A stretch of 60,745 bases of DNA, from contig WPIF01000017.1 in the NCBI GenBank assembly GCA_009773185.1, positions 1-60,745 of the forward strand, read 5' to 3'. The notes under the pieces were generated by a model. That model did not search any database. It had not been told where the DNA came from and saw only the letters and a list, made by a program, of their open reading frames with translations. Below are positions 16,737 to 50,396 of the stretch, one piece after another. Made by a program: the position numbers and the translations under genes. Source of the DNA: Nitrospirota bacterium (lineage in GTDB: Bacteria > Nitrospirota > Thermodesulfovibrionia > Thermodesulfovibrionales > UBA1546). Every line of letters begins with the position of its first letter. Positions within the stretch are counted from its first letter, which is position 1.

Positions 16737-16858
16737 GCAGGATATAGCATCCTCGCTCATTCTCGGTCTTCGACCTCCGAGGTTTTGCCCGCTTTTATTA
16801 TTAGAAATTTTACTGTATGAATTGCAGGCAAAAAAACCGCTCAAATGCCATATCCTGC
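16737..16858. repeat. MITE-like repeat element copy (GCAGGATAT...ATATCCTGC termini)
   Basis: Shares 'CGCTCATTCTCGG..TCCGAGGTTTTGCC...GGCAAAAAAACCGCTCAAA' with copies at 27021, 31996, 33340 and 48511. Has terminal inverted repeats. Confidence 0.5.
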
Positions 16859-16896
16859 ATTTCATTTATAACTATAGTGATAGGGAGGGTTAATTT

Positions 16897-17541
16897 ATGA
16901 AAGTCAAGGTTGTAACCCGTATACTTGAAGCCAATGAAAGGATTGCAGCGGATAATCGCAGGATATTTGATGATTCAGGGGTATATGTTATAAATCTCAT
17001 GAGCGCACCCGGCGCAGGGAAGACATCTCTGCTTGAAAGAACCATAAAAGAGCTGAATAAAAAGTTAAAAGTGGCAGTTATTGAAGGAGATATTGCAGGC
17101 ACTCAGGATGCAGAAAGAATTGGAAACCTCGGGGTCCCGGTTATTCAAATAAATACAGGGGGCGCTTGCCATCTTGATGCAAATATGATTAATGAAGTCC
17201 TGGGAGAGCTTCCCCTGAAGGAGATTGAGCTTCTTTTTATTGAGAACGTAGGGAACCTTGTCTGCCCTGCTGAGTTTAATGTTGGCGAGGATATGAAGGT
17301 TATGCTTTTGAGCATAACAGAGGGAGATGACAAACCACTGAAATATCCGTTGATGTTTCAGGAATCATCAGCCTTAATCCTGAACAAGATTGACCTTTTG
17401 CAGCATACGAATGTAAGTATAGACAAGATAAAAAAGGATGCAATGTCTTTAAGCCCTTCAATAAAAATATTTGAGGTTTCATGCAGGACAGGCGAGGGGA
17501 TATCGGAGTGGACTGATTGGCTGGTAAAGAAGGTGAAATGA
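16897..17541 (+). CDS. hypB: hydrogenase maturation GTPase HypB
   Basis: 214 aa. P-loop 'GAPGAGKTSLL'. CobW/HypB family. Confidence 0.85.
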   Translation: MKVKVVTRILEANERIAADNRRIFDDSGVYVINLMSAPGAGKTSLLERTIKELNKKLKVAVIEGDIAGTQDAERIGNLGVPVIQINTGGACHLDANMINEVLGELPLKEIELLFIENVGNLVCPAEFNVGEDMKVMLLSITEGDDKPLKYPLMFQESSALILNKIDLLQHTNVSIDKIKKDAMSLSPSIKIFEVSCRTGEGISEWTDWLVKKVK

Positions 17542-19922
17542 ACCGTGTTCTCATCAACATCAAGGGCCTTGTGCAGGGCGTTGGTTTCAGGCCGTTTGTT
17601 TATAACCTTGCGAAATCCCTTAACCTGAAAGGCAGTGTAGCCAATACTGCTGATGGAGTAACTATTGATGTGGAGGGCGATGATGTAACTTTTTTTATAG
17701 AGATGCTTTCAAAAGAAGCGCCGCCATTATCAAAAATAATTAATGTTGATATCACGCCAATGCCTTTTTGCGGATACGAAGGCTTTGAAATACTTAAAAG
17801 CAAAGACAATGGAAGTTCTACGCTTATTTCTCCGGATATCTCTGTATGTGATGACTGCCTCAAAGAGATGTTTGATAAAACCGACAGGCGCTATCTCTAT
17901 CCGTTTATAAACTGCACAAACTGCGGGCCGAGGTACACGATTACAAATGCAGTCCCGTATGACAGGCAAAACACCACGATGTCTGTTTTCAGGATGTGCC
18001 CTGAATGCGAGGCTGAATACAATAATCCCGGGAACAGGAGATTTCATGCTCAGCCTAATGCGTGTCCGGTCTGCGGGCCGGAAGTTAAATTAGTTGTCAG
18101 CCATCAGCTGTCAGCTGTCAGCCAGGACCAAAATCCAATAGAAACTGCGATACGGCTATTAAAAGATGGGAAAATTATAGCAGTAAAAGGGCTTGGCGGT
18201 TTTCATATTGCATGCGATGCGAAAAATAAAGATGCGGTAGAAAGACTGAGGCTTGCAAAAAGAAAAAGCAACAAGCCTTTTGCGCTTATGGCGCCTGATA
18301 TCGGGACAATAGAAAGATACTGTGAGGTATCAGAGGAGGAAAAGAAGATTTTAAATTCCAATAAAAGGCCTGTTGTTCTTTTGAGGAAGAGGGCGGATGC
18401 TGATTCTTTGCCTGAGGCAGTAAGTCCTGATAACCAGTATCTTGGTTTTATGCTTCCCTACACTCCGCTGCATTATCTGTTGTTTTATTATTCCTTATCA
18501 GGGCTGACTTACCCCCCCATCCCCCCCTTGGTAAGGGGGGGCGAGAGGGGGGTGGCTAATTTCGATGCCCTTATCATGACGAGCGGAAATCTTTCTGAGG
18601 AACCGATTGTTATTGATAATGATGAGACAATCTCAAAATTATCCGATATAGCAGATGCATTTTTAATCCATAACAGGGATATTTTCATGCGCACTGATGA
18701 TTCGGTTGTCAGAAGTCACTTTTTAAGGCATAAGGCAAAACCGCTGTTTATCCGCCGTTCGCGCGGATATGCGCCTGACCCTATATTTTTAAATGACGAT
18801 GGCTCTGAGGTGCTTGGGTGCGGGGCTGACATAAAAAACACATTTACGCTTACAAAGGGCAGTTATGCAATCCCGAGCCAGCATATAGGAGACATGGAAA
18901 ATTATGAGACAGTAAAGTTTTTTGAAGAGAGCCTCAGGAATCTGAAAGCTGTTTACAGGGTCGAGCCTGTTGCCGTAGCTTATGACCTGCATCCTAATTA
19001 TTTTTCAACGCAATGGGCATTAGCGCAGGGCGCAGAGGGCAAAGGGCAAAGAGTTGAAACTTATGGCATTCAGCATCATTATGCGCATATAGCGTCTGTG
19101 ATGGCAGAAAACGGCATTAAGAAAAAGGTCATGGGCGTTGCATTTGACGGTACGGGTTACGGCACTGATGGTAATCTCTGGGGCAGCGAGTTCTTAATTG
19201 CTGACCCGGAGGATTTTAAGAGAGCGGGGCATTTTAAATACATCCCATTGCCGGGTGGCGAGATGGCAGTCAGAGATCCCTGGAGGGTGGCAGTGAGTTA
19301 TATAAAAGATATTGCAGGGGATGAGGCTATGCATTATCTGGGAGCCATAGGGTTTATTGAAAAATATGGCAAAGATAACCTGAATAATATTCTGAAAATA
19401 ATTGATAACCGGGAATTTTCACCTCTGTCATCAAGTGCTGGGAGGCTTTTCGATGCAGTTTCGGCAATGCTTGGAATATGTGATAGGAATACATTTGAGG
19501 GTGAGGCTGCAATGGCGCTTGAATCTTATACAACGGATGAAATAGATGATGATTACCCTGTGGATGTTATATTCAAGGAGAAGATAATAGTTGATTTTTC
19601 TTTGACGATGCTGCGGCTGATAGAGGATATAGCATGCGGGACTGCCAGGGGTATTATCGCTGCAAAGTTTCATAATACTATCGTGACGGTTATCGAAAGA
19701 GTCATCCTGAAGCTAAACACAATTTATAAATTATATGATGCTGTTTTAAGCGGAGGAGTTTTTCAGAATATGTATCTTCTTAAAAATACAATGAATAGGC
19801 TCAGGTCCGCAGGGATTAATGTCTATATCAACGAGAAGGTGCCGTCGAATGATGCAGGCATATCACTTGGACAGGCGTATATAATAAGGGAGAGGCTAAA
19901 GTCAGAAAAGTGGAAGGCGTAA
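17538..19922 (+). CDS. hypF: carbamoyltransferase HypF
   Basis: Acylphosphatase-like N-terminus (VQGVGFRPF), two Zn-finger pairs (CDDC...CTNCGPRY; CPEC...CPVCGP), YrdC-like 'KGLGGFH' and a Kae1-like C-terminus. ATGA overlap with hypB. Confidence 0.9.
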   Translation: MNRVLINIKGLVQGVGFRPFVYNLAKSLNLKGSVANTADGVTIDVEGDDVTFFIEMLSKEAPPLSKIINVDITPMPFCGYEGFEILKSKDNGSSTLISPDISVCDDCLKEMFDKTDRRYLYPFINCTNCGPRYTITNAVPYDRQNTTMSVFRMCPECEAEYNNPGNRRFHAQPNACPVCGPEVKLVVSHQLSAVSQDQNPIETAIRLLKDGKIIAVKGLGGFHIACDAKNKDAVERLRLAKRKSNKPFALMAPDIGTIERYCEVSEEEKKILNSNKRPVVLLRKRADADSLPEAVSPDNQYLGFMLPYTPLHYLLFYYSLSGLTYPPIPPLVRGGERGVANFDALIMTSGNLSEEPIVIDNDETISKLSDIADAFLIHNRDIFMRTDDSVVRSHFLRHKAKPLFIRRSRGYAPDPIFLNDDGSEVLGCGADIKNTFTLTKGSYAIPSQHIGDMENYETVKFFEESLRNLKAVYRVEPVAVAYDLHPNYFSTQWALAQGAEGKGQRVETYGIQHHYAHIASVMAENGIKKKVMGVAFDGTGYGTDGNLWGSEFLIADPEDFKRAGHFKYIPLPGGEMAVRDPWRVAVSYIKDIAGDEAMHYLGAIGFIEKYGKDNLNNILKIIDNREFSPLSSSAGRLFDAVSAMLGICDRNTFEGEAAMALESYTTDEIDDDYPVDVIFKEKIIVDFSLTMLRLIEDIACGTARGIIAAKFHNTIVTVIERVILKLNTIYKLYDAVLSGGVFQNMYLLKNTMNRLRSAGINVYINEKVPSNDAGISLGQAYIIRERLKSEKWKA
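18512..18556. repeat. G/C-rich hairpin element inserted in frame in hypF
   Basis: CCCCCCCTTGGTAAGGGGGGG encodes ...PPIPPLVRGGERGV... This is about 20 extra residues relative to E. coli HypF between LPYTPLHxLL and LxMTSGNLS. The same hairpin occurs intergenically at 32061 and 33386. Confidence 0.45.
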
Positions 19923-26040: not shown

Positions 26041-26060
26041 GATATATTAAATTTGGCAGG

Positions 26061-26100
26061 GCACAGCATTTTCGCTCAAACGCAATGCCCTGCCTGCTAC
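26061..26100. repeat. miniature (40-bp) derivative of the GGCAGG...CCTGCC repeat family
   Basis: GGCAGGGCACAGCATTTTCGCTCAAACGCAATGCCCTGCC has perfect 9-bp termini and the TTTTCGCTCA core. Confidence 0.35.
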
Positions 26101-27010: not shown

Positions 27011-27020
27011 GGGAATAAAG

Positions 27021-27132
27021 GCAGGACAGTATTTTCGCTCATTCTCGCTCCGCTCCGAGGATTTTGCCTCTTGATTTTTATTAATTTGCTGTCTGATTAT
27101 CGGCAAAATAAACCACTCAAACACTATCCTGC
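27021..27132. repeat. MITE-like repeat element copy
   Basis: GGCAGGACAG TATTTTCGCTCATTCTCGCTCCGCTCCGAGGATTTTGCC...CGGCAAAATAAACCACTCAAACACTATCCTGCC, with GGCAGG/CCTGCC termini. Confidence 0.5.
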
Positions 27133-27148
27133 CTTTTTAGCTGGAGTA

Positions 27149-27171
27149 TGGTCGGGGCGAAAGGATTTGAA
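27149..27171. repeat. 23-bp direct repeat identical to the 3' end of tRNA-Pro (attL-like site)
   Basis: TGGTCGGGGCGAAAGGATTTGAA is identical to 28906-28928 inside the tRNA-Pro gene. Confidence 0.55.
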
Positions 27172-27192
27172 ATCAAAAGCAAGTCTGTGTAT

Positions 27193-27573
27193 CTACACCG
27201 CTATTTCAAGCAGAATCTTATCGTACTTCACCATTGGCGTTGTCTTTTCCCTGCCATTGGTTTTAGCTTTTTCAAGCTCAAGCAGTCCCAATTCTGCAAG
27301 ATAATGTACATCGTCTGAAACATTCTTGAGGTTTCTGCTAATCAGTTTTGCAAGTTCATAGATGGATTGTGGATGTTTTCCCCTGATAACCTGAAGGATT
27401 TTAACCCTCTCCGGCGTTATTGCCTTTCTCATTGTTTCCAGGCTGTCAAAATATATTCCAGGTTTCTTTTTCTTGACCTTATCTCCGCTCTTAAGCTTTT
27501 TCATAACGCTTTTTGCATCGCCAAGCACTTCCTCAATGCTCTTAATCCCTATGGTTACATTTTTAACTTTCAT
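27193..27573 (-). CDS. HTH-domain protein, putative partner of the DUF6516-like protein
   Basis: 126 aa. 'ERVKILQVIRGKHPQSIYELAKLISRNLKNVSDDVHYLAELGLL' is a winged-HTH. It overlaps the upstream gene by 11 nt. Confidence 0.45.
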   Translation of the reverse strand: MKVKNVTIGIKSIEEVLGDAKSVMKKLKSGDKVKKKKPGIYFDSLETMRKAITPERVKILQVIRGKHPQSIYELAKLISRNLKNVSDDVHYLAELGLLELEKAKTNGREKTTPMVKYDKILLEIAV

Positions 27574-27847
27574 TGTTCATCACCTCTTTTAGGTCTTTGT
27601 AAAAATCTTCAAAAAGTTTATCTATTCCCTGAAACTTATAGGGCATTGCCTTATCGCCATAATGCCGATGGTCTCCTTTGCCTTCGGCATTGTCATATCC
27701 TAAAACACGCCTGCCATGTCTGATATACACCAGCGAGTATTTATACCCATGCGGTTTAGCTGGTGATTTAGGGACTGACCATACTTTAGTCTCAATAATG
27801 CCTCCGTGTTTGTCTTCCACCTTGTCATGTATAAGAAGTTCAGTCAT
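27563..27847 (-). CDS. DUF6516-like small protein (HGYKYSLVY / GYDNAEGKGDHRH motifs), possible TA-like toxin
   Basis: 94 aa. The conserved-looking block 'VWSVPKSPAKPHGYKYSLVYIRHGRRVLGYDNAEGKGDHRHYGDK' is recalled from memory as DUF6516 / TumE-like, not verified. Confidence 0.4.
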   Translation of the reverse strand: MTELLIHDKVEDKHGGIIETKVWSVPKSPAKPHGYKYSLVYIRHGRRVLGYDNAEGKGDHRHYGDKAMPYKFQGIDKLFEDFYKDLKEVMNNES

Positions 27848-28054
27848 ATGATAGTTTTATAATACCACATATTGCAGGATTATTCAAGAGATGGGAGATG
27901 TTATCGGGAACTATGATTTAACTTCTGCGTCCTGTCATTAATTTTAATTTTTATCTGCACGACCTGAGAGCTTTGAAAATGTATTTTGTAGGTTTGACCC
28001 CAAATGTTTGTTTCTTCTTTCTTACGCCTAACGCCGTTTTATCCGGCGTCTTAT

Positions 28055-28855
28055 TCACCCTGTTTGTGTAGCAGAAAATAATAGTTCTTCTAAAAACTTA
28101 CGATAAGGTTCATTAAACCTCTTAAATTGGAGGGTTCTTGTACCGCCAGACTCGGTTTCGGTTATGATAAAACGACACACCTCAAGTTCCCTCAGATGAG
28201 CAACTTTCCATTCTCTTGTTTCATCGACCCACTTATCAAGATCACTGCCTGTGTCTGAACGAAAAGAAAATTTTCCTTCAAGAACAAACCGTTTTAGTAA
28301 ATTCTTGGCTTTAGGACTTATTGACTTGAGTTTTTCGACAATCAATGCTTTTTGTTCAGTTTCAAAGCCAGTCAACAATAAGAGCTTGTCAAGGAGCAAT
28401 GGAATCTTATTGTCTAGACCTCCGAGAAGAGATTTTGCATCTGTATGCTCGATATAAATCTGGTCATCAATATCGAATGGTAGTTTTTCTTTTTGGCCTG
28501 GGTTTAATAAAAAAATTAAAGGTTTTTTTAGTCCCTGCATTAATCCAGTTTCTTGAAAAACATTGTAATTGAGAGGAGTTAGAGAAACAATTCCAAAATC
28601 AGATGCCAAAGCATATCTACAAATATTGCAAAATTTTGTACCTGTACCCCCTTCCTTGTCAGCATTAAACAAACGCCATGTTCTTTCACTGAAATATCTT
28701 TCTATTGTCGGTTGCAACCATTTATCTTGATCACGATATTGAAATATAAAAAAAGCTTTATACTTTTCAGGAGTCAATAAATAATCTTTGTCAGGTGAAG
28801 AAAGATTACACTTCATTGGATAATGATCTGGACAAATAAAATTGAATTTTCCCAT
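28055..28855 (-). CDS. hypothetical protein on the tRNA-Pro islet
   Basis: 266 aa. N-terminal 'FFIFQYRDQD...FNADKEGGTGTKFCNICRYALASDFGIVSLTP' has a Rossmann-like alternation that could be a TIR/SLOG-like fold. Unassigned. Confidence 0.35.
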   Translation of the reverse strand: MGKFNFICPDHYPMKCNLSSPDKDYLLTPEKYKAFFIFQYRDQDKWLQPTIERYFSERTWRLFNADKEGGTGTKFCNICRYALASDFGIVSLTPLNYNVFQETGLMQGLKKPLIFLLNPGQKEKLPFDIDDQIYIEHTDAKSLLGGLDNKIPLLLDKLLLLTGFETEQKALIVEKLKSISPKAKNLLKRFVLEGKFSFRSDTGSDLDKWVDETREWKVAHLRELEVCRFIITETESGGTRTLQFKRFNEPYRKFLEELLFSATQTG

Positions 28856-28905
28856 ATCAATCTCTCGTTTTACAGAAAACTATTTGATTTGAAATAAATT
28901 TTTCT

Positions 28906-28982
28906 TGGTCGGGGCGAAAGGATTTGAACCTTCGACCCCACGGTCCCGAACCGTGTGCGCTACCAAACTGCGCTACGCCCCG
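28906..28982 (-). tRNA. tRNA-Pro (anticodon CGG)
   Basis: The reverse complement reads CGGGGCGTAGCGCAGTTTGGTAGCGCACACGGTTCGGGACCGTGGGGTCGAAGGTTCAAATCCTTTCGCCCCGACCA. It has a 7-bp acceptor stem, a D-arm, the anticodon loop TTCGGGA, a T-arm GGTTCAAATCC and an encoded CCA. Confidence 0.85.
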
Positions 28983-31937: not shown

Positions 31938-31995
31938 GTGAGAACATTATAAACTTTGTTTTACAGTATTTGGTAGTATTTTACTTCTCTGTTTG

Positions 31996-39659: not shown

Positions 39660-40316
39660 GTGGACATGGGAAAAGAAGAGACGCTTAAGGCAAAGCTGGT
39701 TCAATCAGTTATAAATTATGTCAGGGCAAGTCATGAGGCTGCCATTGATAAGGCGTATGAATATTTCTGGGATGAAAAAGACCCGGAAGAGTTTCTTAAA
39801 GGCACTGCGCTTGCTCTCGGGTTCATAAATTTTGAGGACTGGCTTGTATTTGACTATAAGGCAAATGAAGCCAAAGAGATTTTTTTAGATATATATGCCG
39901 CTTGCAATAAAGAATTGAAAGATGAGGAGCTTGCGCTTCTGAATAAAATCAGGTGTTCTTTAATAAGCCTTTATGAGGTTGCGTCTGTCTCCAGGGATAA
40001 AAAGATCATCCTCAAAGACCTGCTCCTCGGCGGAGAATTTGTTTTAAGAGAGAAGGCTATGACAAGAGGCTTAAAAAAGGGCGACATATTTGCAACAAGG
40101 CTGTTAACGCTGGATGGCAAGTCTGTTATGAGCGGGTGTGTTTATCCGTATAAGGCAGGAGATAAGCAGCTGGTTCTTGGATATATAGAGAGGATGTTCA
40201 AGAGGTATAAAAAGAATGAAAACCCCGAAGGCAGTATGGAAAACTTCCTGAAAGATTACGGGGATACTTTTAATGTGGTCTGGATGAATATAATTCTTAA
40301 TCAGACGGAGACGTAA
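39660..40316 (+). CDS. hypothetical protein
   Basis: 218 aa, soluble, no recognised motif. Immediately upstream of the caspase array. Confidence 0.4.
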   Translation: MDMGKEETLKAKLVQSVINYVRASHEAAIDKAYEYFWDEKDPEEFLKGTALALGFINFEDWLVFDYKANEAKEIFLDIYAACNKELKDEELALLNKIRCSLISLYEVASVSRDKKIILKDLLLGGEFVLREKAMTRGLKKGDIFATRLLTLDGKSVMSGCVYPYKAGDKQLVLGYIERMFKRYKKNENPEGSMENFLKDYGDTFNVVWMNIILNQTET

Positions 40317-40421
40317 AAGGCAACAGAAGCCCGCTGAACTCAGGTTTGGCTGTATATGGGAAACCTCTTGCGTAAGTGTTATAGTAAAGATATTATTAAC
40401 ATTCAGGCAAAAGGAGCAATC

Positions 40422-41885
40422 ATGAATATCAAAAAGTATTTGCTCGGTTTGACTTTATGCTTGTTTTTTATGGTTAGCGGCTGCGCTATTGCTCTTGGCC
40501 CTCAAGCAGTTGACCTGAAGGAATCCCAGAGGCCGCCTGTCCTCAGGCTTGAGCAGGTCAGCGAGCAGAAGAGCGGGAGTGGGAGTGAGGAATGGCCGGG
40601 ATTCCGCGACCTTCTGATAAGAGCGCTGAACCAGCCTCCAGCCTCCAGTATCTTCACGAAGGACAGCTCCGGCTTGGCCCTGAAGATTGAGCTCAAATCC
40701 TCCCATGAGAGCGACACGTCCCGGCTCATCGGGCTGGGGCTCCTCAGCATGGGAACACTGGGGATCCTTCCTCTTCATTACCACTCGGACTGGCCGGTCA
40801 AGGGCGATGTCACGATATATTCGGGGGATGGGAAGGTGCAGGGCCAGTACCATGTCCAATCGACGGGAACCTATGACATCCAGGCGTACCCGCTCACGAT
40901 GTTTACCCTGTTCGGGGCAAGCTTTCAGGGGGACGCTGACGCCAAAGAGATACTCCAACGGACGGCCAATGACATCGTATCTCAGATTATGAGGGCGGTT
41001 GATTCCGACTATGAAAAGCTTGCTGTAGTTTATCGTTCCCAGATGCTGGCAAAGGCGGAACAATCGGTGGTGGAAGCGTCATCCAGGGATGAACTGCGCA
41101 TTATAAAATCTGATGTGGACGATATACCTGCGGCAAAAGCAAAGATAAATAGTAATAAATCATATGCCATTGTTATCGGAATCGAACGGTACCGTCAGAA
41201 GCTTCCGAGGGCCGACTTCGCAACGCATGATGCCCAGACAGTGACTGACTATTTAACCAAGGTGCTTGGATATCCCGAAGAAAATGTAATTACATTATTA
41301 AATGATAGGGCTCTAAAAAGTGATTTTGAAAAATATTTTGAGAAGTGGCTTATGAATAATGTAGAGAAGGAAGGCACCGTGTTTGTGTATTACTCAGGCC
41401 ACGGCGCTCCGGACCCCAGGACAGGCAGCGCCTATCTTGTGCCCTATGACGGCGACCCTTCATTTATTGACCAGACAGGGTATTCTTTGAAGAGGATGTA
41501 CGAAGCCCTCGGAAGGCTTCAGGCAAAAGAGATTATCGTTGCGCTTGATTCCTGTTTCTCAGGCGCAGGCGGGAAGTCTGTGCTTGCAAAAGGCGCAAGG
41601 CCTCTGGTTATGAACCTTGAACAGGACATAAAGCTTTCAAAGAACATGACTGTCATGTCTGCCTCGTCAGGCGACCAGATCAGTTCAACCTATGACGAGA
41701 AGGGACATGGCTTATTCACTTACTTCATGCTCAAGGGGATTAAGAACGAAGACGTTGTCAAGCAGGATGGTTCTCTGGATATCAGTGAACTGCATTCCTA
41801 CCTTAAATCCCAGGTGGAGCGCATTGCCAGAAAGCAGTACAATAACGAACAGACTCCGCAGCTGATTGTGCCGAAGAAGAATTAG
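40422..41885 (+). CDS. lipoprotein with C-terminal caspase-like (peptidase C14) domain
   Basis: Lipobox MVSGC. Caspase His 'VYYSGHG' and Cys 'DSCFSGAGG'. C-terminal 'QYNNEQTPQL'. A conserved in-frame leader starts at 40356. Confidence 0.7.
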   Translation: MNIKKYLLGLTLCLFFMVSGCAIALGPQAVDLKESQRPPVLRLEQVSEQKSGSGSEEWPGFRDLLIRALNQPPASSIFTKDSSGLALKIELKSSHESDTSRLIGLGLLSMGTLGILPLHYHSDWPVKGDVTIYSGDGKVQGQYHVQSTGTYDIQAYPLTMFTLFGASFQGDADAKEILQRTANDIVSQIMRAVDSDYEKLAVVYRSQMLAKAEQSVVEASSRDELRIIKSDVDDIPAAKAKINSNKSYAIVIGIERYRQKLPRADFATHDAQTVTDYLTKVLGYPEENVITLLNDRALKSDFEKYFEKWLMNNVEKEGTVFVYYSGHGAPDPRTGSAYLVPYDGDPSFIDQTGYSLKRMYEALGRLQAKEIIVALDSCFSGAGGKSVLAKGARPLVMNLEQDIKLSKNMTVMSASSGDQISSTYDEKGHGLFTYFMLKGIKNEDVVKQDGSLDISELHSYLKSQVERIARKQYNNEQTPQLIVPKKN

Positions 41886-41937
41886 AAATGCGAAGATTAG
41901 AGGAAGAAGGGCGATAGGTTTTTATGAGAGGTGGGTT

Positions 41938-43422
41938 GTGAAAAGGCATAATTTTATTTCTTTAATCAGCATAATCTTTATCCTGCTTGCGGGTATGGCT
42001 ATGGTAGGCTGTGCGACACCGTTAATAAATGCTGTAGAGCGCGGGGATATCGATGAGGTTAAAAAACTGCTCGAAACTGGCGCTGATCCTAATGCATCCG
42101 CGGACATGAGTCCCTTAAATATTGCGGCAAGTCGCGGAGACATTAACATGGTTAGGATTCTGCTCGATAAAGGGGCTAATCTCCATGCCGGGGTTTTCCC
42201 TCCCATTAGGTTTGCAGTAAAGGGAAGCAACTATGAGGTTGTGAAATTACTGTTAGACAAGGGTGCTGACCCAAATAGTTCAGGGACTTTTGGTTGCGGC
42301 TATGAACAGCTTTTAGTAGAAGCTGCGGGAATGATAGGAAAAGGCAGCATTAAAATCGTAGATTTGCTAATTGAGAGAGGTGCCAATTTTGATGTCGCTT
42401 TGTCATACTGTGAACGGCACTCAAGTGATTTCATGTGTGGTTCCAATTATGCTAAATGTTATGCGACATTGAAGCAGATTAAGACGAAACGGGATGAAAT
42501 AGCAAGACAAGAAGAAAAAGAACAGAAACTTACAAAAGCCAAAGAAATAGAAGCGAATAAGGCAAAAGAGATGAAAGAGATAATTAAAGAAGTCGTTGCT
42601 GAAACAGCTAAGACCCAAAAGCAAGCAGCCCGGCCTTCTTCTGTCCAGTCCGACATAGAAAAACCATCGTTTACTCCTGCAGAAAAAATTATCAGCGATA
42701 ACGACCTCGCTGTCATCATTGGCATAGAAGGCTATCAAAGTCTGCCAAAGTCCGATTATTCTTATGACGATGCAAAGCTTGTTAAAGACTATATCAAGGC
42801 TCTTGGTTTTAAAGAAAGGAATATCGAACTTATTACTGATGAAAAGGCAACGCTTTCCAGTATAACCAAAACCCTGGAGGCATGGCTGAAAAACAAGGCA
42901 AAGAATGATAGTAAAGTATTTGTATACTATTCAGGGCATGGCTCGCCTGACCCGGCAACAGGAGAGGCATATCTTGTGCCGTATGACGGAGACCCGAATT
43001 ATCTTGCTGTGACTGGTTATCCTTTAAAGAGGCTCTATGACAACCTCGGCAAGCTGCAAGTCGCTGAGGTTACGGTAGTGCTTGATGCTTGTTTTTCAGG
43101 CGCTGGAGGAAGGAGCGTTCTTGCGCAGGGAGCAAGGCCGTTAGTAATGGTGGCAGATATTAAAACAATTCCATCCAATATGGCTATCCTCTCAGCAACG
43201 CAGGGTTCTCAGATAAGCACATCATCTTCTGAAAAAGGACATGGGGTTTTCACTTATTATTTTTTGAAAGCTTTGAAAGGCGGAAAGAAGACAATCGCAG
43301 AGATTTACGAATATATAAAACCGCTTGTGGAAGATGATGCAAAACAGTTGAATGTCCAGCAGAGCCCGAGCATAAGCCCGGATGTTGAGAAATTGAAGGG
43401 AAGGTTTGAGTTGAGGAAATAA
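41938..43422 (+). CDS. ankyrin-repeat lipoprotein with C-terminal caspase-like domain
   Basis: Probable GTG start (VKRHNFISLIS...MVGC lipobox). Ankyrin repeats ('GADPNAS...LNIAASRGDINMVRILLDKGANLHA'). Caspase dyad 'YYSGHG' / 'DACFSGAGG'. C-terminal 'QQSPSISPDVEKLKGRFELRK'. Confidence 0.7.
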   Translation: MKRHNFISLISIIFILLAGMAMVGCATPLINAVERGDIDEVKKLLETGADPNASADMSPLNIAASRGDINMVRILLDKGANLHAGVFPPIRFAVKGSNYEVVKLLLDKGADPNSSGTFGCGYEQLLVEAAGMIGKGSIKIVDLLIERGANFDVALSYCERHSSDFMCGSNYAKCYATLKQIKTKRDEIARQEEKEQKLTKAKEIEANKAKEMKEIIKEVVAETAKTQKQAARPSSVQSDIEKPSFTPAEKIISDNDLAVIIGIEGYQSLPKSDYSYDDAKLVKDYIKALGFKERNIELITDEKATLSSITKTLEAWLKNKAKNDSKVFVYYSGHGSPDPATGEAYLVPYDGDPNYLAVTGYPLKRLYDNLGKLQVAEVTVVLDACFSGAGGRSVLAQGARPLVMVADIKTIPSNMAILSATQGSQISTSSSEKGHGVFTYYFLKALKGGKKTIAEIYEYIKPLVEDDAKQLNVQQSPSISPDVEKLKGRFELRK

Positions 43423-43427
43423 AACAA

Positions 43428-43922
43428 ATGCTTGATTATCTTGCTATATTCAAAAAATTGAACGAAAAAAAGATTCGGTATCTAGTAGTTGGAGGGATTG
43501 CTGTTAATCTGCATGGTATCCCGAGGATGACGTACGACGTAGACCTGATTCTTGATCTTGAAGATGAAAACATAAAGGAGTTTTTGCAATTATTAAAGGG
43601 ATGGGGATTTAAACCCAAGATTCCTGTGGATATTATGGATTTTGCAAAAAAAGAAATCAGGGAAAGCTGGATAAAAAATAAGAATATGAAGGCATTTAAT
43701 CTTGTAAACACTGAATGGGCAATCTCAGAAATAGATATTGTAATAGATTCACCTGTTGACTATAAGAAGGGGCATAAGAGGATGAAACATATTATGCTTC
43801 ATGATGTTTCTATCCCCGTAATATCCATTGATGACCTTATAAAAATGAAACATATTACAGAGAGGCAGCAGGATGAGGCAGATATAAGATACTTAAGGAA
43901 ACTGAAAAATGCGAAAAAGTAA
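43428..43922 (+). CDS. nucleotidyltransferase-fold protein (MNT-like)
   Basis: 164 aa. 'YLVVGGIAVNLHGIPRMTYDVDLIL' is the minimal-NTase G-x...D-x-D signature. No HepT partner seen. Confidence 0.55.
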   Translation: MLDYLAIFKKLNEKKIRYLVVGGIAVNLHGIPRMTYDVDLILDLEDENIKEFLQLLKGWGFKPKIPVDIMDFAKKEIRESWIKNKNMKAFNLVNTEWAISEIDIVIDSPVDYKKGHKRMKHIMLHDVSIPVISIDDLIKMKHITERQQDEADIRYLRKLKNAKK

Positions 43923-44109
43923 AACACAGGGCTTTGACTACTATTTAAGCAAAGAGGCAATAGAGCGGTATAGGGAGAAGCCCCCTGAACTCAGGCTTAA
44001 ATGGCTGTATATGGGGAACCTCTTGCGTAAGGGGTACAGCAAGGATGTTATTAAGATTCAGGATAAATTCAGGGAAGGGAAGTAAGTAATGATTTCAGGC
44101 GGTGGGGTT

Positions 44110-45543
44110 ATGAAAACGAAGGGTAATTTTATTTCTTTAATCAGCGTAATCTTTCTCCTGCTTGTGGGTATGGCGATGGGAGGGTGCGGGACCGCATTGA
44201 CACAGGCGGCAAAAGAAGGAGACATCTCTGCCCTCCAGAAACTGATTGAGGAAGGTGCAGATATTAATGAAGGCGCTATAGTAGGAGGTAGTATGAATGG
44301 CTCGCTTTTAAGCCAAGCTGCATACTACTGCCGTATTGAGGCGGTAAAGTATTTAATACATAAAGGGGCTGATATAAATAATGCAACAGGTTGGACAGAT
44401 TATGGTGCTAGTGGTGGAGGGTTGAGACCTTTGCATATGGCTGCAAGATCTGGTTGCACAGAGGCAATAAAACTTTTGCTCGATGCAGGCGCTGACATTG
44501 ATGTAAGAGCAAATAAGATGTTCGGGTCTGCTCTGGCAATAGCCGCATATCATGGTAATATTAAGAGCGTAAAATATTTAATTGAAAGAGGGGCTGACGT
44601 TGATGATGCAAGCCAGGTTCTTAAAGGATTGGCAGATGACAAAATGAAAGGGAGAGGTGGTAAAGAAGGCCTGGCATTGCTCCAGAAGTTTGAAAAGCAG
44701 AAAATTGCGATCCGGCTTTCTGAAAATATACCTCCTTCCATTGTTGCCAAATCCGATGTTGACGAACTTCCTGCAATAAAAGCAAAACTAAATAGAAACT
44801 CCTACGCTATCGTTATCGGCATCGAGAGCTACCGCCAGAAGCTTCCAAAGGCTGATTATGCGGTAGCTGATGCAAAGGCAATGACAGAATATCTCACAAA
44901 GGTCATGGGCTATCCGGAGGAAAATGTAATAACACTTATCAATGAGCAGGCGACAAAAAGTGATTTTGAGAAATATATCGAAGAATGGCTGCCGAAGAAC
45001 ATTGAACCAAACAGCTCAGTGTTCATCTACTACTCAGGGCATGGTGCGCCTAATACCAAGACAGGTGATGCGTTCCTGGTTCCTTACGACGGCGACCCTA
45101 ACTTCATAGAAAAAACAGGATATCCGCTTAAAAAACTTTACGACAACCTTTCCAAACTTCAGGCAAAGGGAGTAATCGTTGCACTTGATTCCTGCTTCTC
45201 GGGCGCAGGAGGGCACAGTGTTCTCGCACAGGGAAGCCGTCCTCTGGTCATGAACCTTCAGACAACTCTATCTCCCGCAAAAAATATGATAATCATGGCA
45301 GCATCATCCGGCAGCGAAACAAGCTCGACTTATAACGACAAGGGACATGGCTTGTTTACGTACTTTATGCTTAAAGGCATAAAAGGCGAGGCTGATATGA
45401 ATGAGGACGGCAAAATAGAAATAGAGGAGTTGTACCAGTACATGAAACCCAATGTTCAGAAGATTGCCAGAAGGCTTTATAATAATGAGCAGACGCCTCA
45501 GTTGATAGCGCCCGAGAAACAGAAGATATTCTTAAAGGATTGA
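44110..45543 (+). CDS. ankyrin-repeat lipoprotein with C-terminal caspase-like domain
   Basis: 'MKTKGNFISLISV...MGGC', ankyrin repeats, 'YYSGHG' / 'DSCFSGAGG', C-terminal 'LYNNEQTPQL'. Preceded by a conserved leader / 24-codon uORF (44011-44085). Confidence 0.7.
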   Translation: MKTKGNFISLISVIFLLLVGMAMGGCGTALTQAAKEGDISALQKLIEEGADINEGAIVGGSMNGSLLSQAAYYCRIEAVKYLIHKGADINNATGWTDYGASGGGLRPLHMAARSGCTEAIKLLLDAGADIDVRANKMFGSALAIAAYHGNIKSVKYLIERGADVDDASQVLKGLADDKMKGRGGKEGLALLQKFEKQKIAIRLSENIPPSIVAKSDVDELPAIKAKLNRNSYAIVIGIESYRQKLPKADYAVADAKAMTEYLTKVMGYPEENVITLINEQATKSDFEKYIEEWLPKNIEPNSSVFIYYSGHGAPNTKTGDAFLVPYDGDPNFIEKTGYPLKKLYDNLSKLQAKGVIVALDSCFSGAGGHSVLAQGSRPLVMNLQTTLSPAKNMIIMAASSGSETSSTYNDKGHGLFTYFMLKGIKGEADMNEDGKIEIEELYQYMKPNVQKIARRLYNNEQTPQLIAPEKQKIFLKD

Positions 45544-45630
45544 GATAGCAATAGCTGTACTAATTTAATTAAGATTCTTTTGCTTTGTGATAAAATAGCT
45601 AAAGAATATAAAAAGTTTGGGGGTGAGACG

Positions 45631-45834
45631 ATGAAGACGGTTAAGATTGTTTTGCCGGAGAAACTTGGCATGGAGCTTAAGAATTATGTAAAAAGCGGAT
45701 GGTTTATTGATGAGTCAGAGGTTCTGCGAACTGCTTTGCAGGAATTCATTCGTCATAATCGGCTTAAGTTGATGGAAAAATTTATGAAGGAAGATATTGA
45801 GTGGGCATTAAAAATAAAAGCCGGCGCTAAATGA
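45631..45834 (+). CDS. UPF0175-family small protein (antitoxin-like partner of DUF3368)
   Basis: 67 aa from ATG 45631 (RBS GGGGTGAG). '...SEVLRTALQEFIRH' is UPF0175-like. 4-nt overlap with the downstream PIN gene. Confidence 0.5.
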   Translation: MKTVKIVLPEKLGMELKNYVKSGWFIDESEVLRTALQEFIRHNRLKLMEKFMKEDIEWALKIKAGAK

Positions 45835-46334
45835 GCATTGTTGTTTGTGATACCGGCCCAATTATCCACTTGAAAGAAGCAGGGCTTTTAAAACTTCTCA
45901 AAGAGACCGGCAAAATCTATATACCTCAAATGGTAGAAACCGAACTCAGCGAAATAGACCACCTCTGGAAAAAACAGAGACCGGACTGGATATTAATAGA
46001 AACTCTCTCGTCAAGTGAAATCAAAAAGGCAGAGTCTTTAGTTTTTTCAGGGTTACTGGATTTTGGTGAGGCAGAGGCTATTATTCTGGTCAAAAAACTC
46101 AACCCCAAATGGTTTCTAACTGATGACACAGAGGCAAGAGTTCTGGCTAATTCTTTGGGTATGGAAGTGCATGGTTCTTTAGGAGTAGTATTGTGGTCTG
46201 CTGCAGTCGGTCATTTAAGCTATGCGGAATCGAAGAAAGCGCTCGATAGACTTTCTAAAACATCCCTCTGGATTTCAAAAGATATTTTATTGCAAGCTGA
46301 GGAAGCATTAAAGGCAATGTTTGAGAAGATCTAA
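45831..46334 (+). CDS. DUF3368 PIN-like nuclease domain protein
   Basis: 167 aa. 'IVVCDTGPIIHL' is the DUF3368 N-terminus (PIN Asp). Acidic residues at 'LTDDTEA'. Confidence 0.6.
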   Translation: MSIVVCDTGPIIHLKEAGLLKLLKETGKIYIPQMVETELSEIDHLWKKQRPDWILIETLSSSEIKKAESLVFSGLLDFGEAEAIILVKKLNPKWFLTDDTEARVLANSLGMEVHGSLGVVLWSAAVGHLSYAESKKALDRLSKTSLWISKDILLQAEEALKAMFEKI

Positions 46335-46355
46335 AGTGCGGAAGAGATTATTTGG

Positions 46356-47667
46356 AGGTGGGGTTATGAAAATCAAGGGTAATTTAATTTCTTTAATTAG
46401 CGTGCTCTTTATTCTGTCAACGATTATGGCGATGACAGGTTGTGCGACAACGCCATTAAGGGACGCAGTAGGAAAGGGTGATATTAACACTGTAAAAGAT
46501 ATTCTTGATAAGGGTGGTGATATAAATGAAAAATACTATGGCATACCGCTTTTGCATGTTACGGTTGTTGATCCTATCTGGGGATTAAATACAATTGGAT
46601 GTCGCACTGAGATGGCAAAAGTTCTGCTTGAACGGGGTGCTGATGTAAATGCTAAGGACACTTCGTGGAATGTAGGTCCCTTGGCATTGGCGGCATATGG
46701 GGGATGTAATAGGATAGTAAGCTTCCTGGTTGAAAGAGGGGCTAATGTAGATGAAGCTATATCCCAACTAGAATCTTGGTTTCTTAAAGGGAGTGAGTCC
46801 AAATCTGGCATTAAAATACTTGAGAACACAAAAGTAAAACAAGACAGGGTTAAGCAACCCACTGTAGCCTCTATGCTTTCTCCTACTCTCACATCCGACG
46901 TTGACGAACTTCCTGCAATAAAGGCAAAACCAAATAAAAACTCCTATGCCATTGTAATCGGAATAGAAAACTACCGGCAGAAGCTTCCAAAGGCAGATTA
47001 TGCTGTAGCTGATGCAAAGACTGTAACTGAATATCTCACAAAGGTAATGGGCTATCCGGAAGAAAATGTTGTAACTCTCATGAACGACCGGGCGTCCTTG
47101 ACGGATTTTATAAAATACTTTGAAAAATGGCTTCCGAATAATGTTGAAAAGGACAGCATGGTGTTTGTGTACTACTCAGGACACGGCGCGCCGAATACAA
47201 AGACAGGCGATGCCTATCTTGTGCCTTATGACGGAGACCCGTCATTTATTGAACAGACCGGCTATCCCCTGAAGAAACTCTATGAATTACTTAACAAACT
47301 TCAGGCAAAGGAGATTATCGTTGCGCTTGATTCATGTTTTTCAGGTGCAGGCGGAAAGTCTGTAATAGCAAAAGGCGCGAGGCCGTTGGTTATGAATCTT
47401 GAACAGGATATGAAGGCTTTCGATAAGCTGACAATTTTGTCCGCTGCATCAGGAGACCAGACAAGCTCTACCTATGACGAGAAGGGGCACGGCTTATTCA
47501 CTTACTTCATGCTCAAGGGCATCAAGAACGAGGATGTTACAAGGCAGGATGGCTCGATTAAGATGGATGACCTCTTTAGCTACATTAAACCACAGGTAGA
47601 GCGCATTGCCAGAAAGCAGTACAATAACGAACAAACGCCGCAGTTGTTCGGGGGAAAACATAGGTGA
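46356..47667 (+). CDS. ankyrin-repeat lipoprotein with C-terminal caspase-like domain
   Basis: 'MKIKGNLISLISV...MTGC', ankyrin repeats, 'YYSGHG' / 'DSCFSGAGG', C-terminal 'QYNNEQTPQL'. Confidence 0.7.
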
Positions 47668-48488
47668 GATTTATGAAAAAAATACCTTTAATATTTCTCC
47701 TTCTTGCTCTTCCCTTCGTCTCTCTTGCTGCGGATAAACCCGCCTGGATTGATGCAGACGGAGAGGCAGTTATGGGTGATATCGAGACGCAGAAAGAGGT
47801 CAAGGAGAGGGCAAAGATTGATGCACAGAATAAGGCAGTTGAAAAGGCAGTCGGCGTATTCATAAGGTCTCACACTCTGGTTTCTAACAGCCAGCTTGCA
47901 GAGGACCTTATTTATGCGTCTGTAAGAGGGAAGATAGAGAAGGTTAATATTGTCAAAGAGGGATGGGATGAGAAGGACAGAAATCTTTACAGGGTTAAGA
48001 TTAAAGCCCTTGTTATGCCTGTTTATCCTGAGAAAGGCGAAGGCATATCACTAAAAATACTGCTTTCTAAAACTGTTTTAAAAGAGGGCGATGAGGTAAA
48101 AATATTTTATCAGGCAAGCAATGACTGCTATGTTTATATTTTTTCGGTTGCCGCTGATGGCTCAGTGACATTGCTCCTGCCCAATTCCATGAATCAGGAC
48201 AACCATACAAAAGCCGGCAAGTCATATGAATTCCCTTCGTCTGAAAGCAAAATAAAACTTCAGGCAAGATTTCTTCCGGGTTTTGGCAAAAATGCCGCTG
48301 AGGAAAGGATTAAGATTATAGCAACAAAGCTCAGGGAGGATATAATACCGCTCGGATTTCAGGAAGGAATGTTTAAGGTTTATGATTCCAAATCAACCGG
48401 AATGATAAGCGACCTTGTAAGAAGGCTTAATCAGCTTGAACCTGCTGATTGGGCTGAGGCAACGGTAGTTTATAAATTAAGCAGATAA
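47664..48488 (+). CDS. secreted protein with LPP20-like N-region and DUF4384 domain
   Basis: 274 aa. Signal peptide. 'DEVKIFYQASNDCYVYIFSVAADGSVTLLLPN' matches DUF4384, a domain known to co-occur with caspase domains. ATGA overlap with the upstream caspase gene. Confidence 0.6.
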   Translation: MRFMKKIPLIFLLLALPFVSLAADKPAWIDADGEAVMGDIETQKEVKERAKIDAQNKAVEKAVGVFIRSHTLVSNSQLAEDLIYASVRGKIEKVNIVKEGWDEKDRNLYRVKIKALVMPVYPEKGEGISLKILLSKTVLKEGDEVKIFYQASNDCYVYIFSVAADGSVTLLLPNSMNQDNHTKAGKSYEFPSSESKIKLQARFLPGFGKNAAEERIKIIATKLREDIIPLGFQEGMFKVYDSKSTGMISDLVRRLNQLEPADWAEATVVYKLSR

Positions 48489-48510
48489 ATTAAGGCAATG
48501 CAATACCCAG

Positions 48511-48662
48511 GAGGTAACATTTTTTCGCTCATTCCCGGGCTGAAGCAGCGACTCCTCCGCCCCAGGCGGATTCGCCGAGGCGAAGAGGAATTTTGCCTCT
48601 TCATCCCTTATTATTTTAAGGAATATCGGCAAAATAAAACCGTTCAAAAACATTACCGCCTG
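48511..48662. repeat. MITE-like repeat element copy (divergent)
   Basis: TTTTTCGCTCATTCCCGGG...GGAATTTTGCCTCTTC...ATATCGGCAAAATAAAACCGTTCAAAAACATTACCGCC. Confidence 0.45.
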
Positions 48663-48684
48663 TATTAAAAAAAGGGTGATTAAA

Positions 48685-50325
48685 ATGAAAGTTGTTACTG
48701 CAGAAGAGATGAGAGAGATTGACAGAAAGACCATGAGAAATTACGGGATATCCGGCTCTGTTCTTATGGAAAGGGCAGGGCTTGCCGTTGCCGGGAAGAT
48801 CAAAGAACTTTTTGAAAAACAAAAGGTCATTGTGCTTTCGGGCGGCGGGAACAATGGCGGCGACGGGATTGTTGTTGCAAGGAATCTTAGCGAGTGGGGA
48901 TGGAATGTGAAGGTAATCCTGCTTTCTAAAGAAAATAAACTTAGCCGGGACTGCCTTGAACAATACAGAATAGCAAAAAAGACAGGTGTGCCGATAGAGT
49001 TCAGGACAGAGATTACGGGAAAAGATACTCACAGTGCGATTATTGTTGATGCAATCTTCGGGACAGGCCTGAGTAAGGATATAACAGGAAAAATAGCTGA
49101 TGTTATCTCATTTTTGAACAACTCAGAATCGCCTATCGTTTCGGTTGATATTCCTTCAGGTATTTCTTCTGATACGGGTCAGGTTATGGGCGAAGCGGTA
49201 AGCGCAGATTATACGGTTACATTCGGCCTTCCAAAGAGAGGGCATTTTCTTTATCCCGGTGCGGAATATACAGGTAAGCTTTTCATTGAGGATATAGGAT
49301 TTCCTGAAGAACTTATTCACTCAGAAAAACTTAATGTAGAGTTTCTTGAAAAAATGGATGTGTCCCTTTTAATTCCGGAGAGGCGGCGATATTCACATAA
49401 GGGAGACTATGGCCATGTGCTTGTTATTGCCGGTTCCAGAGGAAAGACAGGCGCTGCATTCATGTGTGCAAAGGCATGCCTGAGGGCAGGGGCAGGGCTT
49501 GTAACAATAGGGGTTCCTGAAACATTGATGGATGTCTTTCAATCAAGGGTTACAGAGGAGATGACGTTGCCTCTGCCAGACAGAGGGGATGGAACTTTGT
49601 CATCAAAGGCTTCTGATAAAATACTGGCTTTTATCGCAGATAAGGCTGATGTGCTTGCAATAGGGCCTGGAATCTCGGTAACCGATGACACCCAAAAACT
49701 TATAACCGCGCTTGTATTGAATTCTGCAGCGCCTATGGTGATGGATGCAGATGCGATAAATGCGCTTGAAGGCAATAAGTATGTCCTCAGAAGAGCAAAG
49801 GCTCCGGTAATAGTTACGCCGCACATAGGAGAGATGGCAAGACTGCTGCAAGGGTCAAAGGGTTCATCCTTCGCAGTTCATCCTTCGCAGCGCTGCGGAG
49901 AATGGATGCTACGGAGAATGGATCAAAGGGTCTCGCCTCAGGCGAGTCGCCGAGGAGACAAAGGGTCAAGAGAAATAGAGATAGACAGAATTAGTACAGC
50001 GATAAACTTTGCGAAGGAAACAGGAACATATCTTGTGCTTAAGGGAGCGCCGACGGTTATTGCTGAGCCTGAAGGAAGCGCATTTATTAACTCAACTGGA
50101 AATCCCGGCATGGCGAGTGCGGGGGTGGGAGATGTCCTTACAGGAATGATTGCAGGATTGCTTGGCCAGGGATTAAATCCGTTAGAGGCGTCAATACTTG
50201 GGGTTTTCATGCATGGGCTGGCAGGAGATATAGCTGCAAACAAACAGGGTGAGCACTCATTGATTGCATCAGATATGATAAATGCGTTGCCGGATGCTTT
50301 TCTTTCATTGAAAAAAATCAGATAG
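48685..50325 (+). CDS. nnr: bifunctional NAD(P)H-hydrate repair enzyme Nnr (epimerase + ADP-dependent dehydratase)
   Basis: YjeF-N 'GGGNNGGDG', YjeF-C 'GHVLVIAGSRGKTGAA' and 'LKGAPTVIA'. About 35 extra residues (…SSFAVHPSQRCGEWMLRRMDQRVSPQASRRGDKGS…) come from a repeat insertion. Confidence 0.8.
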   Translation: MKVVTAEEMREIDRKTMRNYGISGSVLMERAGLAVAGKIKELFEKQKVIVLSGGGNNGGDGIVVARNLSEWGWNVKVILLSKENKLSRDCLEQYRIAKKTGVPIEFRTEITGKDTHSAIIVDAIFGTGLSKDITGKIADVISFLNNSESPIVSVDIPSGISSDTGQVMGEAVSADYTVTFGLPKRGHFLYPGAEYTGKLFIEDIGFPEELIHSEKLNVEFLEKMDVSLLIPERRRYSHKGDYGHVLVIAGSRGKTGAAFMCAKACLRAGAGLVTIGVPETLMDVFQSRVTEEMTLPLPDRGDGTLSSKASDKILAFIADKADVLAIGPGISVTDDTQKLITALVLNSAAPMVMDADAINALEGNKYVLRRAKAPVIVTPHIGEMARLLQGSKGSSFAVHPSQRCGEWMLRRMDQRVSPQASRRGDKGSREIEIDRISTAINFAKETGTYLVLKGAPTVIAEPEGSAFINSTGNPGMASAGVGDVLTGMIAGLLGQGLNPLEASILGVFMHGLAGDIAANKQGEHSLIASDMINALPDAFLSLKKIR

Positions 50326-50396
50326 ATAATGAAGAAAGTCAAAATAAAACCGCTCAGATACTATATTCCTTTCTCTGGTTAATTTTTTAAGTAAAC

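Follow-up and report, generated by a model that had tools for sequence, protein, structure and literature searches.

Copies of the repeat in the window

The window analysed here is contig WPIF01000017.1 (60,745 nt) of the Nitrospirota bacterium assembly GCA_009773185.1 (Thermodesulfovibrionales, UBA1546), in which a family of short palindromic repeats lies between the genes. Five full copies (c1 to c5), one internally deleted miniature (the mini) and one 5'-truncated remnant were found, all of them intergenic. The orientation of the motif on which the original prediction of the family was based (TTTTCGCTCA ... GGCAAAATAAAACCGCTCAAA) is called the D strand, and its reverse complement the R, or bottom, strand. 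Labels with the letter L (L006, L016, L050, L230-L234 etc.) denote loci of relatives that were compared with the window.

Copy c1 (16733-16862, + strand; 112.7 bits with a covariance model of the family) fills the spacer between hypA and hypB, whose products by domain are HypA and CobW/HypB. The left arm of its basal stem (P1a) runs to 16749, the 5' box covers 16750-16765 and the right arm (P1b) starts at 16846. The mini (26055-26094, + strand; covariance model E = 4e-6) is in the spacer between hypE and a patatin-like gene, and consists of P1a, TTTTCGCTCA joined directly to AA, and P1b. Downstream of the patatin-like gene, before a toxin-antitoxin pair, is c2 (27020-27133, + strand; 110.9 bits), with its 5' box at 27032-27047, GGCAAAAT at 27102-27109 and P1b at 27122-27136. 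Copy c3 (31995-32145, + strand; 103.7 bits) separates a methyltransferase gene (- strand) from hisH (+ strand), and the inverted copy c4 (33330-33478, - strand; 110.2 bits) is found between folK and an aminotransferase gene, both on the - strand. Copy c5 (48507-48662, + strand; 87.4 bits) is between a DUF4384 gene and nnr/yjeF, and the remnant, a 3' box plus P1b (50331-50373, + strand; profile hidden Markov model (HMM) E = 9e-5), is between nnr/yjeF and a Cu-oxidase_4 gene.

The seven copies and fragments of the original prediction are all present, with adjusted coordinates. The 5' box TTTTCGCTCATTCTCG has five matches in the window at up to three mismatches, against 0.85 expected, and the 3' box GGCAAAATAAAACCGCTCAAA has four against none expected. 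A profile HMM built from relatives recovers the five full copies and the 3' fragment, and an unfiltered covariance model reports all five full copies, at 87-113 bits, plus the mini, with no further copies in the 60.7-kb window. The mini does exist, but it had been placed about 6 nt off, at 26061-26100.

A three-way junction with variable, covarying stems

The unit was described from alignments of about 200 copies, found in the genomes of 13 Nitrospirota species and in metagenomes of sediment and groundwater. The unit is a quasi-palindrome of 110-165 nt that is predicted to fold as a three-way junction, with the order P1a, TTTTCGCTCATTCTCG, hairpin P2, CTCCGAGG, hairpin P3, AA(N)CCGCTCAAA, P1b. 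The joining strings TTTTCGCTCATTCTCG, CTCCGAGG and AAANCCGCTCAAA are near-invariant, whereas the three stems vary but covary; the most conserved part of the element is its interior, not its ends. P1 has 14-24 bp, and its sequence is copy-specific even inside one genome, while its arms remain complementary. GGCAGG...CCTGCC, previously taken for the termini of the family, is one common version of a hypervariable, covarying basal stem. The perfect terminal inverted repeats that had been reported are real in c1, c2, c3 and the mini but are not common to all copies, P1 ending in GCGGG...CCCGC in c4 and in CAGGAGG...CCGCCTG in c5. P2 has at least 21 different apical stems. P3 reads TATTTTGCC...GGCAAAATA with an AT-rich apex in the window subfamily, and the internal TTTTGCC/GGCAAAA inverted pair noted earlier is this stem; metagenome relatives have unlike P3 stems, such as AATTCT../..AGAATT, TCCCGAT/ATCGGGA, ACCAC../..GTGGT and TCTTCGCT/AGCGAAGA, for a total of at least 26 different closing stems.

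In a model-based alignment of 74 copies, 96.0% of the cells are standard pairs and two-sided changes are seen in 22 of 32 pairs (310 cells), although the number of independent events is overstated by these figures, as the copies share ancestry and the model itself shaped the alignment. None of 500 shuffles reaches the observed level, and slid controls likewise fall far below it.

The string CGCTCA is repeated directly in the first and last joining strings, and the mini is an exact fusion of P1a-TTTTCGCTCA to AA-P1b, that is, a deletion between the two CGCTCA repeats. The modules of the element are mosaic between copies. Identical P3 apices are found with different P1 types (e.g. L003/L042 and L013a/L013b), suggesting recombination between copies through the invariant boxes.

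Strand asymmetry of folding

The stem positions that depart from Watson-Crick pairing are overwhelmingly A.C on the D strand, which is G.U on the R strand. With ungapped anchoring of P1, 109 such positions favour R and 13 favour D, and the excess persists if only positions 6 outward are counted (36 vs 8, p = 2.5e-5). The model-based alignment gives 171 G.U (favouring R) and 25 A.C (favouring D). P1 of the metagenome set, which was collected by the 5' box and not the 3' box, gives 87 vs 17, and P3 gives 21 vs 2. The consensus folds at -42.8 kcal/mol as R and -23.0 kcal/mol as D, and in individual window copies the R fold is about 8 kcal/mol better (in c1, -49.9 for the bottom and -41.2 for the top strand). 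With RNA parameters, R folds better than D in 64 of 68 copies; with DNA parameters, it does so in 49 of 52 and 65 of 68.

Mutation bias was rejected as the source of the A.C excess, by reasoning only: ordinary C-to-T changes affecting the exposed or coding strand would push the balance the other way. Because the sign is opposite to that of deamination bias, we infer that R-strand pairing is kept by selection, at the level of either the element or the host. The interior behaves like a structure under selection on one strand, which the label MITE (miniature inverted-repeat transposable element) alone does not predict.

Distribution and copy number

The family is repeated and restricted to one clade. 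In a collection of species-representative genomes, 62 loci match a degenerate 21-mer of the 3' box exactly, and 61 of them are from 13 Nitrospirota/Thermodesulfovibrionales metagenome-assembled genomes; the other is a single Endobugula contig and is probably a chance match. The 3' box was not found in viral contigs. The 5' box 16-mer is found in at least 120 metagenome loci, mostly from freshwater, wetland or estuarine sediment and from groundwater, and among the matches listed, 86 loci have a complementary P1, which marks them as real elements. There is one copy per 8.7 kb in the window and approximately one unascertained copy per 21 kb around relatives; by extrapolation from these densities, a genome would hold some 100-350 copies. 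Contigs also tend to stop at the elements. Two Logan contigs with identical HypA, among the matches listed, end about 60 nt past its stop codon, inside c1, several k141 contigs end 117-118 nt from the 3' box, and contigs with close homologues of the patatin-like gene are mostly 1-4 kb long. Contigs ending in copies would be expected, since high-copy repeats break assemblies.

Turnover at orthologous sites

At orthologous spacers, copies have been gained, lost, truncated, internally deleted, replaced and nested with other modules. The spacer between hypE and the patatin-like gene, for which orthologous loci (L230-L234) were recovered through patatin homologues, has a single nucleotide in L232 (TGA-G-ATG), a 158-nt insert running from P1a to a 25-nt tail with ATGA on both sides in L233, and the mini in the window, with a P1 similar to that of the L233 copy. 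In L230 and L231, the same spacer carries another MITE family. The neighbouring c2 is present in the window and L231, and absent from L230, where the patatin protein is 95% identical, and from L232, L233 and L234. The c2 orthologue in L231 has an additional C-rich hairpin module in P3.

The c3 orthologue in L016 has the same P1, while that of c4 in L016 has several two-sided P1 changes with flanks that are about 91% identical. At the site of the remnant, full copies are found in three other species (L050, L018 and L006), and a further copy is seen in L006 only, missing from the window, L050 and L018. In L003, the 5' half of an element is found where L058 reads stop-AG-ATG, and L039 and L045 (flanks 91% identical) carry copies with different P1s in opposite orientation in the same spacer. 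Sites can nevertheless be old: the nearest relative, at about 92% identity, covers four of the window sites and shares every one of them, two are shared at about 75% identity, and the core strings are kept at orthologous sites while the flanks diverge. Unbiased partial copies, counted for a 5'-truncation bias that would hint at retro-transposition, number only 3 vs 1, a sample too small to support it.

In L027 and L057, the core is replaced by a different MITE family (GTCATTGCGAG.. or GTCATTCC..GGAATGAC). This other family, with ends ..TTGTCATTCCCGC.. / ..GCGGGAATGACA.. or GTCATTGCGAG..CTCGCAATGAC, occupies the same spacers in relatives (L230 1305-1500 and 2383-2560, L231 21-60, L027 ~3803-3957, L057 ~150-240), which makes these spacers hot spots for more than one repeat family. 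The idea that the elements inserted into hairpins or terminators already in place was considered and rejected: the empty orthologous spacers are free of hairpins, a mini-type loop occurs once in 494 kb, and no more than about one P1 stem in four, as judged by eye, finishes in an A/T tract.

Outer inverted repeats in relatives

In many metagenome copies, an outer inverted repeat of about 21 nt lies 8-15 nt outside P1; the left repeat reads (C/T)TA(A/G)CCC(A/G)N-ATTATTCATAAA and the right one is complementary to it. Of 130 copies, 19 have its exact core [AG]TGA[AG]TAAT downstream at a distance of 90 nt or less, where 0.5 would be expected, and at up to two mismatches the repeat is next to 30 of 69 metagenome copies and 4 of 54 copies of the genome set. 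The members of ten complete outer pairs are separated by 136-174 nt, with the junction module inside each; one further pair, 42 nt apart, lacks it. The linkers between outer repeat and P1 are also conserved, and several window-type copies keep traces of the right one (..CTGCATTTGAGAAAATTT) after P1b, with a weak trace after c1 (by eye). The outer pairs are the signature of a MITE of about 175-190 nt with true terminal repeats, and the window copies look like versions of it without ends. The (C/T)TA(A/G) at the outer end may be either a duplicated target or part of the repeat, the two being indistinguishable here. As a duplicated target it would be IS5/IS630-like.

Target-site duplications, which had been proposed as a check on the family, are not above shuffled flanks at the P1 borders. 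There is one filled/empty pair (L233/L232), in which the ATGA direct repeat surrounds the insert. Two apparent outer pairs around longer stretches were rejected as autonomous elements: that in L080 encloses cupredoxin and RimI genes, and the 2-kb pair in the viral contig L207 lies inside phage open reading frames (ORFs) and is a coincidence. The right outer repeat itself reads as a five-codon mini-ORF (ATG AAT AAT nnn GGn, stop) in relatives such as L162 (~1954-1975), L150, L176 and L184, with TAG, TAA or TGA at a fixed position; this could be a coincidence, or may be a re-initiation device for the downstream gene.

Orientation and genomic context

In the window, the D strand is the sense strand in all five cases where a copy is between co-directional genes. 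After de-duplication of sites, the window-type subfamily has 31 D-sense and 10 D-antisense copies (p = 0.0015). Convergent contexts outnumber divergent ones in the metagenome set (14 vs 7). Orientation relative to inferred replication strand, from the GC-skew residual with the coding-strand effect removed, is 39 vs 26, and 10 vs 8 for strong calls. The elements fit closely into their spacers, with a median of about 14 nt after the upstream stop codon and 25-36 nt before the next start codon. Their neighbours are unrelated housekeeping genes (hypA/hypB, hypE/patatin, hisH, folK, nnr, lgt, tsaD, metK and others), and clustering of 447 neighbouring proteins gave no recurrent neighbour family besides orthology. 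A PyrR-binding attenuator match at 1075-1182 of L136, below threshold (45.7 bits vs a gathering score of 54), is followed by an element copy (~1212-1330) and then by pyrR; elements are also upstream of pyrR homologues in L106 and L150.

Relationship to known classes of repeats

The label MITE-like given to these repeats by the original prediction is apt in that they are small, non-coding, multi-copy, intergenic and palindromic, with presence/absence polymorphism, but not in its account of the ends, as P1 is not a terminus and the window copies carry no outer repeats. With IS630/IS5-type MITEs (Correia/NEMIS, RUP, Nezha) they further share nested small repeats and, in relatives, terminal inverted repeats of about 21 nt ending in (C/T)TA(A/G), as well as the one filled/empty pair with a short direct repeat. 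They differ in that the window copies lack conserved termini, the apparent terminal repeat is a variable stem at which no target-site duplication was detected, no cognate transposase was found, and the interior is the most conserved part.

Enterobacterial repetitive intergenic consensus (ERIC) elements, or intergenic repeat units, occupy transcribed spacers as imperfect palindromes of about 127 nt, with a conserved core, differing sites and internal indels; they are long-lived and have no transposase of their own. The elements described here resemble them in being imperfect palindromes in transcribed spacers, in a core that is conserved across species, in indel variants at fixed points, in long-lived orthologous sites and in the lack of their own transposase. 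However, the likeness is one of architecture and function only: they have no sequence homology to ERIC, they are found in Nitrospirota, and they have a covarying three-way junction, a measured strand asymmetry and, in relatives, an outer repeat.

Repetitive extragenic palindromic (REP) elements and REPINs are hairpin-forming extragenic repeats with about a hundred or more copies, vertical inheritance, compensatory stem changes and a strand-specific fold (in part from PMC3116915 and PMC3337134). Copy number, long vertical inheritance, compensatory changes and strand-specific folding are all shared by the present family, but it has no inverted pair of REP units and no GTAG-type motif, its stem sequence is not conserved, no REP-associated tyrosine transposase (RAYT) was found, and its architecture is P1/P2/P3 with direct CGCTCA repeats. 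The palindrome-associated elements (PATEs) derived from IS200/IS605 have sub-terminal hairpins but no terminal inverted repeats, and a conserved target of 4-5 nt adjoins their left end. P2 and P3 with the adjacent CGCTCA resemble this layout, but here a long P1 encloses the element and no conserved flank sequence was seen.

The attC sites of integrons are imperfect palindromes of about 60-140 nt in which structure is conserved over sequence, and their folded, active bottom strand is usually antisense to the ORFs. The present elements likewise are imperfect palindromes of conserved structure in which one (bottom) strand folds and is usually antisense to the neighbouring ORFs. However, attC has conserved boxes (the R''/R' core sites) at the base of the stem and a variable centre, whereas here the base is variable and the junction fixed; there is neither a cassette array nor intI, and the flanks are syntenic housekeeping genes.

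A riboswitch or other gene-specific cis-regulator, which had been named as the alternative to mobile DNA, was rejected because the flanking genes share no functional class and no Rfam family matches the element at gathering or permissive thresholds (window copies and ten compact metagenome loci). No known self-cleaving ribozyme (hammerhead, twister, pistol, hatchet or HDV-like) was found on either strand by cmscan at E <= 10 and E <= 1, and no CUGANGA...GAAA core was seen by eye. Literature searches for Thermodesulfovibrionales with miniature inverted-repeat, for Nitrospirae with REP or MITE, and for the box sequences returned nothing specific, and the family appears to be undescribed. Overall, by analogy, it seems to work most like ERIC elements and REPINs, that is, as structured, long-lived repeats with no transposase in cis.

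Origin and maintenance of the family

We favour, with a probability of about 0.5, the interpretation that these elements are a clade-wide family of small, non-coding, transposon-derived MITE/ERIC-like intergenic repeats of the Thermodesulfovibrionales (Nitrospirota). A MITE origin is plausible because relatives carry conserved terminal inverted repeats, and since the window copies are without them, their own mobility as MITEs is judged from those relatives. The family would have spread as a MITE of about 175-190 nt, moved in trans by a DDE-type transposase encoded outside the window, and the window copies would be old residents that have lost their outer ends. Selection acting on one strand in its single-stranded form may have kept the inner junction, or else conversion among the copies may have done so. 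Any effect on the host would be incidental, as for REP and ERIC, through a stable structure in operon spacers, and selection against the stronger R hairpin in transcripts could account for the excess of copies with the weaker-folding strand as mRNA.

Several observations weigh against a transposon origin as the whole explanation. No outer repeat is found next to any window copy, nor is it enriched window-wide, and 50 of the 54 genome copies are without it. The L233 insert starts at P1a with no left outer repeat, which does not fit simple end-to-end transposition. The search for a cognate transposase, suggested earlier as a check, was negative: the window, 1.2 Mb of related loci and the viral contigs gave none with matching ends, either between outer pairs or beside copies. 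The core persists while the ends decay, an argument that what keeps it has nothing to do with DDE transposition, and the better-folding strand is usually not the transcribed one. In addition, the broader metagenome set shows no significant bias in orientation (18 vs 12), and the counts of covarying and wobble pairs are inflated by shared ancestry.

Three rival explanations stay alive because the core persists longer than the ends, the L233 insert starts with P1a and transcription usually covers the strand that folds worse. In one, of REPIN/IS200 type, the junction bounded by P1 is itself the mobile or maintained unit; a HUH enzyme (Y1/RAYT-like) acting in trans would recognise the folded bottom-strand hairpin and cut at the direct TGAGCG (CGCTCA) repeats, and the mini would be a resealed product. 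This is consistent with the strand-specific fold, in which G.T-type pairs are tolerated on one strand only, DNA parameters included, with the lack of target-site duplication at P1, with the direct CGCTCA repeats at the feet of the hairpins and the exact fusion of the mini there, with the L233 insert, and with REPIN-like long-lived sites. It leaves the conserved outer repeats unexplained, however, and P1 is not conserved in sequence as REP stems are, nor is there a GTAG-like conserved 5' tetranucleotide. Also, no recurrent neighbour gene was found, orientation shows no clear relation to inferred replication strand, and tblastn with approximate consensus queries, a weak test, gave no Y1/RAYT-like ORF in the roughly 0.5 Mb surrounding the copies (the window and genome-scan loci). 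On balance this reading is unlikely. The transcribed strand offers another, in which the D strand acts in operon transcripts as a domesticated cis-acting RNA module: an intercistronic stabiliser, a processing site or an attenuator. Such roles have been reported for REP, ERIC and Correia elements. The close fit of the elements into short spacers between co-directional genes, the excess of D-sense sites in the window and its subfamily, and the retention of core strings at orthologous sites with diverged flanks are all in its favour. Nonetheless, it is the mRNA strand that carries the A.C mismatches and folds worse, about a quarter to 40% of copies are antisense, and copies have been lost or reduced to a stub without gene loss. 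P2 with a U-rich tail was flagged as terminator-like by a scan in c3 and c4, but the U-tract is not kept across subfamilies and a conserved terminator was rejected for that reason. A role of this kind is distinctly unlikely.

The bottom strand could instead encode a stand-alone structured non-coding RNA, or a ribozyme-like motif, carried by a transposon shell. Such an RNA might display what is seen here, namely three helices that covary and differ in length, junction nucleotides that are invariant, tolerance of G.U on one strand and a core kept after loss of the outer repeats. Yet there is no Rfam match even at permissive thresholds, the core strings of hammerhead, twister and pistol were not seen by eye, and copies in the hundreds with frequent truncation are atypical of RNA genes. 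Nor is there a conserved promoter upstream of the bottom-strand 5' end, since that flank is the ribosome-binding site or start region of the neighbouring gene. We consider this explanation very unlikely. In a broader formulation, the junction would be a new class of functional, strand-specific structured nucleic acid that spread through Nitrospirota genomes in a transposon shell and was kept by selection after the shell decayed. It could be an RNA, possibly one that is catalytic or binds protein, or single-stranded DNA folded into a site on which a recombinase or HUH enzyme acts. This is improbable, though with some real chance of being correct.

Nested modules and other features of the window

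Two smaller hairpin modules are found both inside the elements and on their own. Module B (CCCCCC..GGGGGG), a C-run/G-run hairpin (..CCCCCCTTGGTAAGGGGGG..), is nested at the P3 apex in c3 (~32049-32098) and c4 (~33373-33419). A solo copy (18511-18554, + strand) is in frame inside hypF, where it reads through as ..YPPIPPLVRGGERGV.. and lengthens an HypF domain. The acquisition of this module by the c2 orthologue in L231 indicates that it moves on its own. Module C is a GC-rich hairpin (GTCTCCTCGGCGACTCGCCTGAGGCGA) with solo copies at 49931-49959, in frame inside the nnr/yjeF ORF, and at 52488-52516, the two forming a perfect 29-nt inverted pair. At the nnr/yjeF site the window is 63 nt longer than L050, and the second copy is a 27-nt in-frame insert in ORF 52371-53177 that is absent from the L050 orthologue. 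A related unit (~48550-48588) is inside P2 of c5, the orthologues of which in L050 and L006 are without module C. Such in-frame palindromic inserts in genes are reminiscent of Rickettsia palindromic elements.

As originally predicted, one copy adjoins a tRNA-Pro attachment repeat: a 23-nt copy of the tRNA-Pro 3' end is found at 27149-27171, about 15 nt past c2. Between this direct repeat and the tRNA-Pro gene (28906-28982, - strand) is an islet of approximately 1.8 kb (27149-28982) with a TumE / HVO_A0114 toxin-antitoxin pair and one ORF without a Pfam match. The islet is absent from L233 and L234, where the patatin-like gene leads directly to tRNA-Pro. Further along, at ~40300-58500, is an array of at least six paralogous genes that share ..YYSGHG.. 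and ..LDSCFSGA.. blocks and are putatively caspase-like (peptidase C14), interleaved with short lipoprotein-like ORFs (repeat families D1-D10).

Significance for the Thermodesulfovibrionales

These elements fill a sizeable share of the operon spacers in an environmentally important, mostly uncultured group of groundwater and sediment Thermodesulfovibrionales, and they fragment assemblies of this clade. The covariance model or the box strings can be used to flag assembly breakpoints and as clade markers. In this family, nature also provides a case of a miniature transposon with decaying ends and an internal three-way junction under strand-specific constraint. It offers a way to test whether REP- and ERIC-type repeats are selfish DNA, domesticated RNA structures or both, which is an old question.

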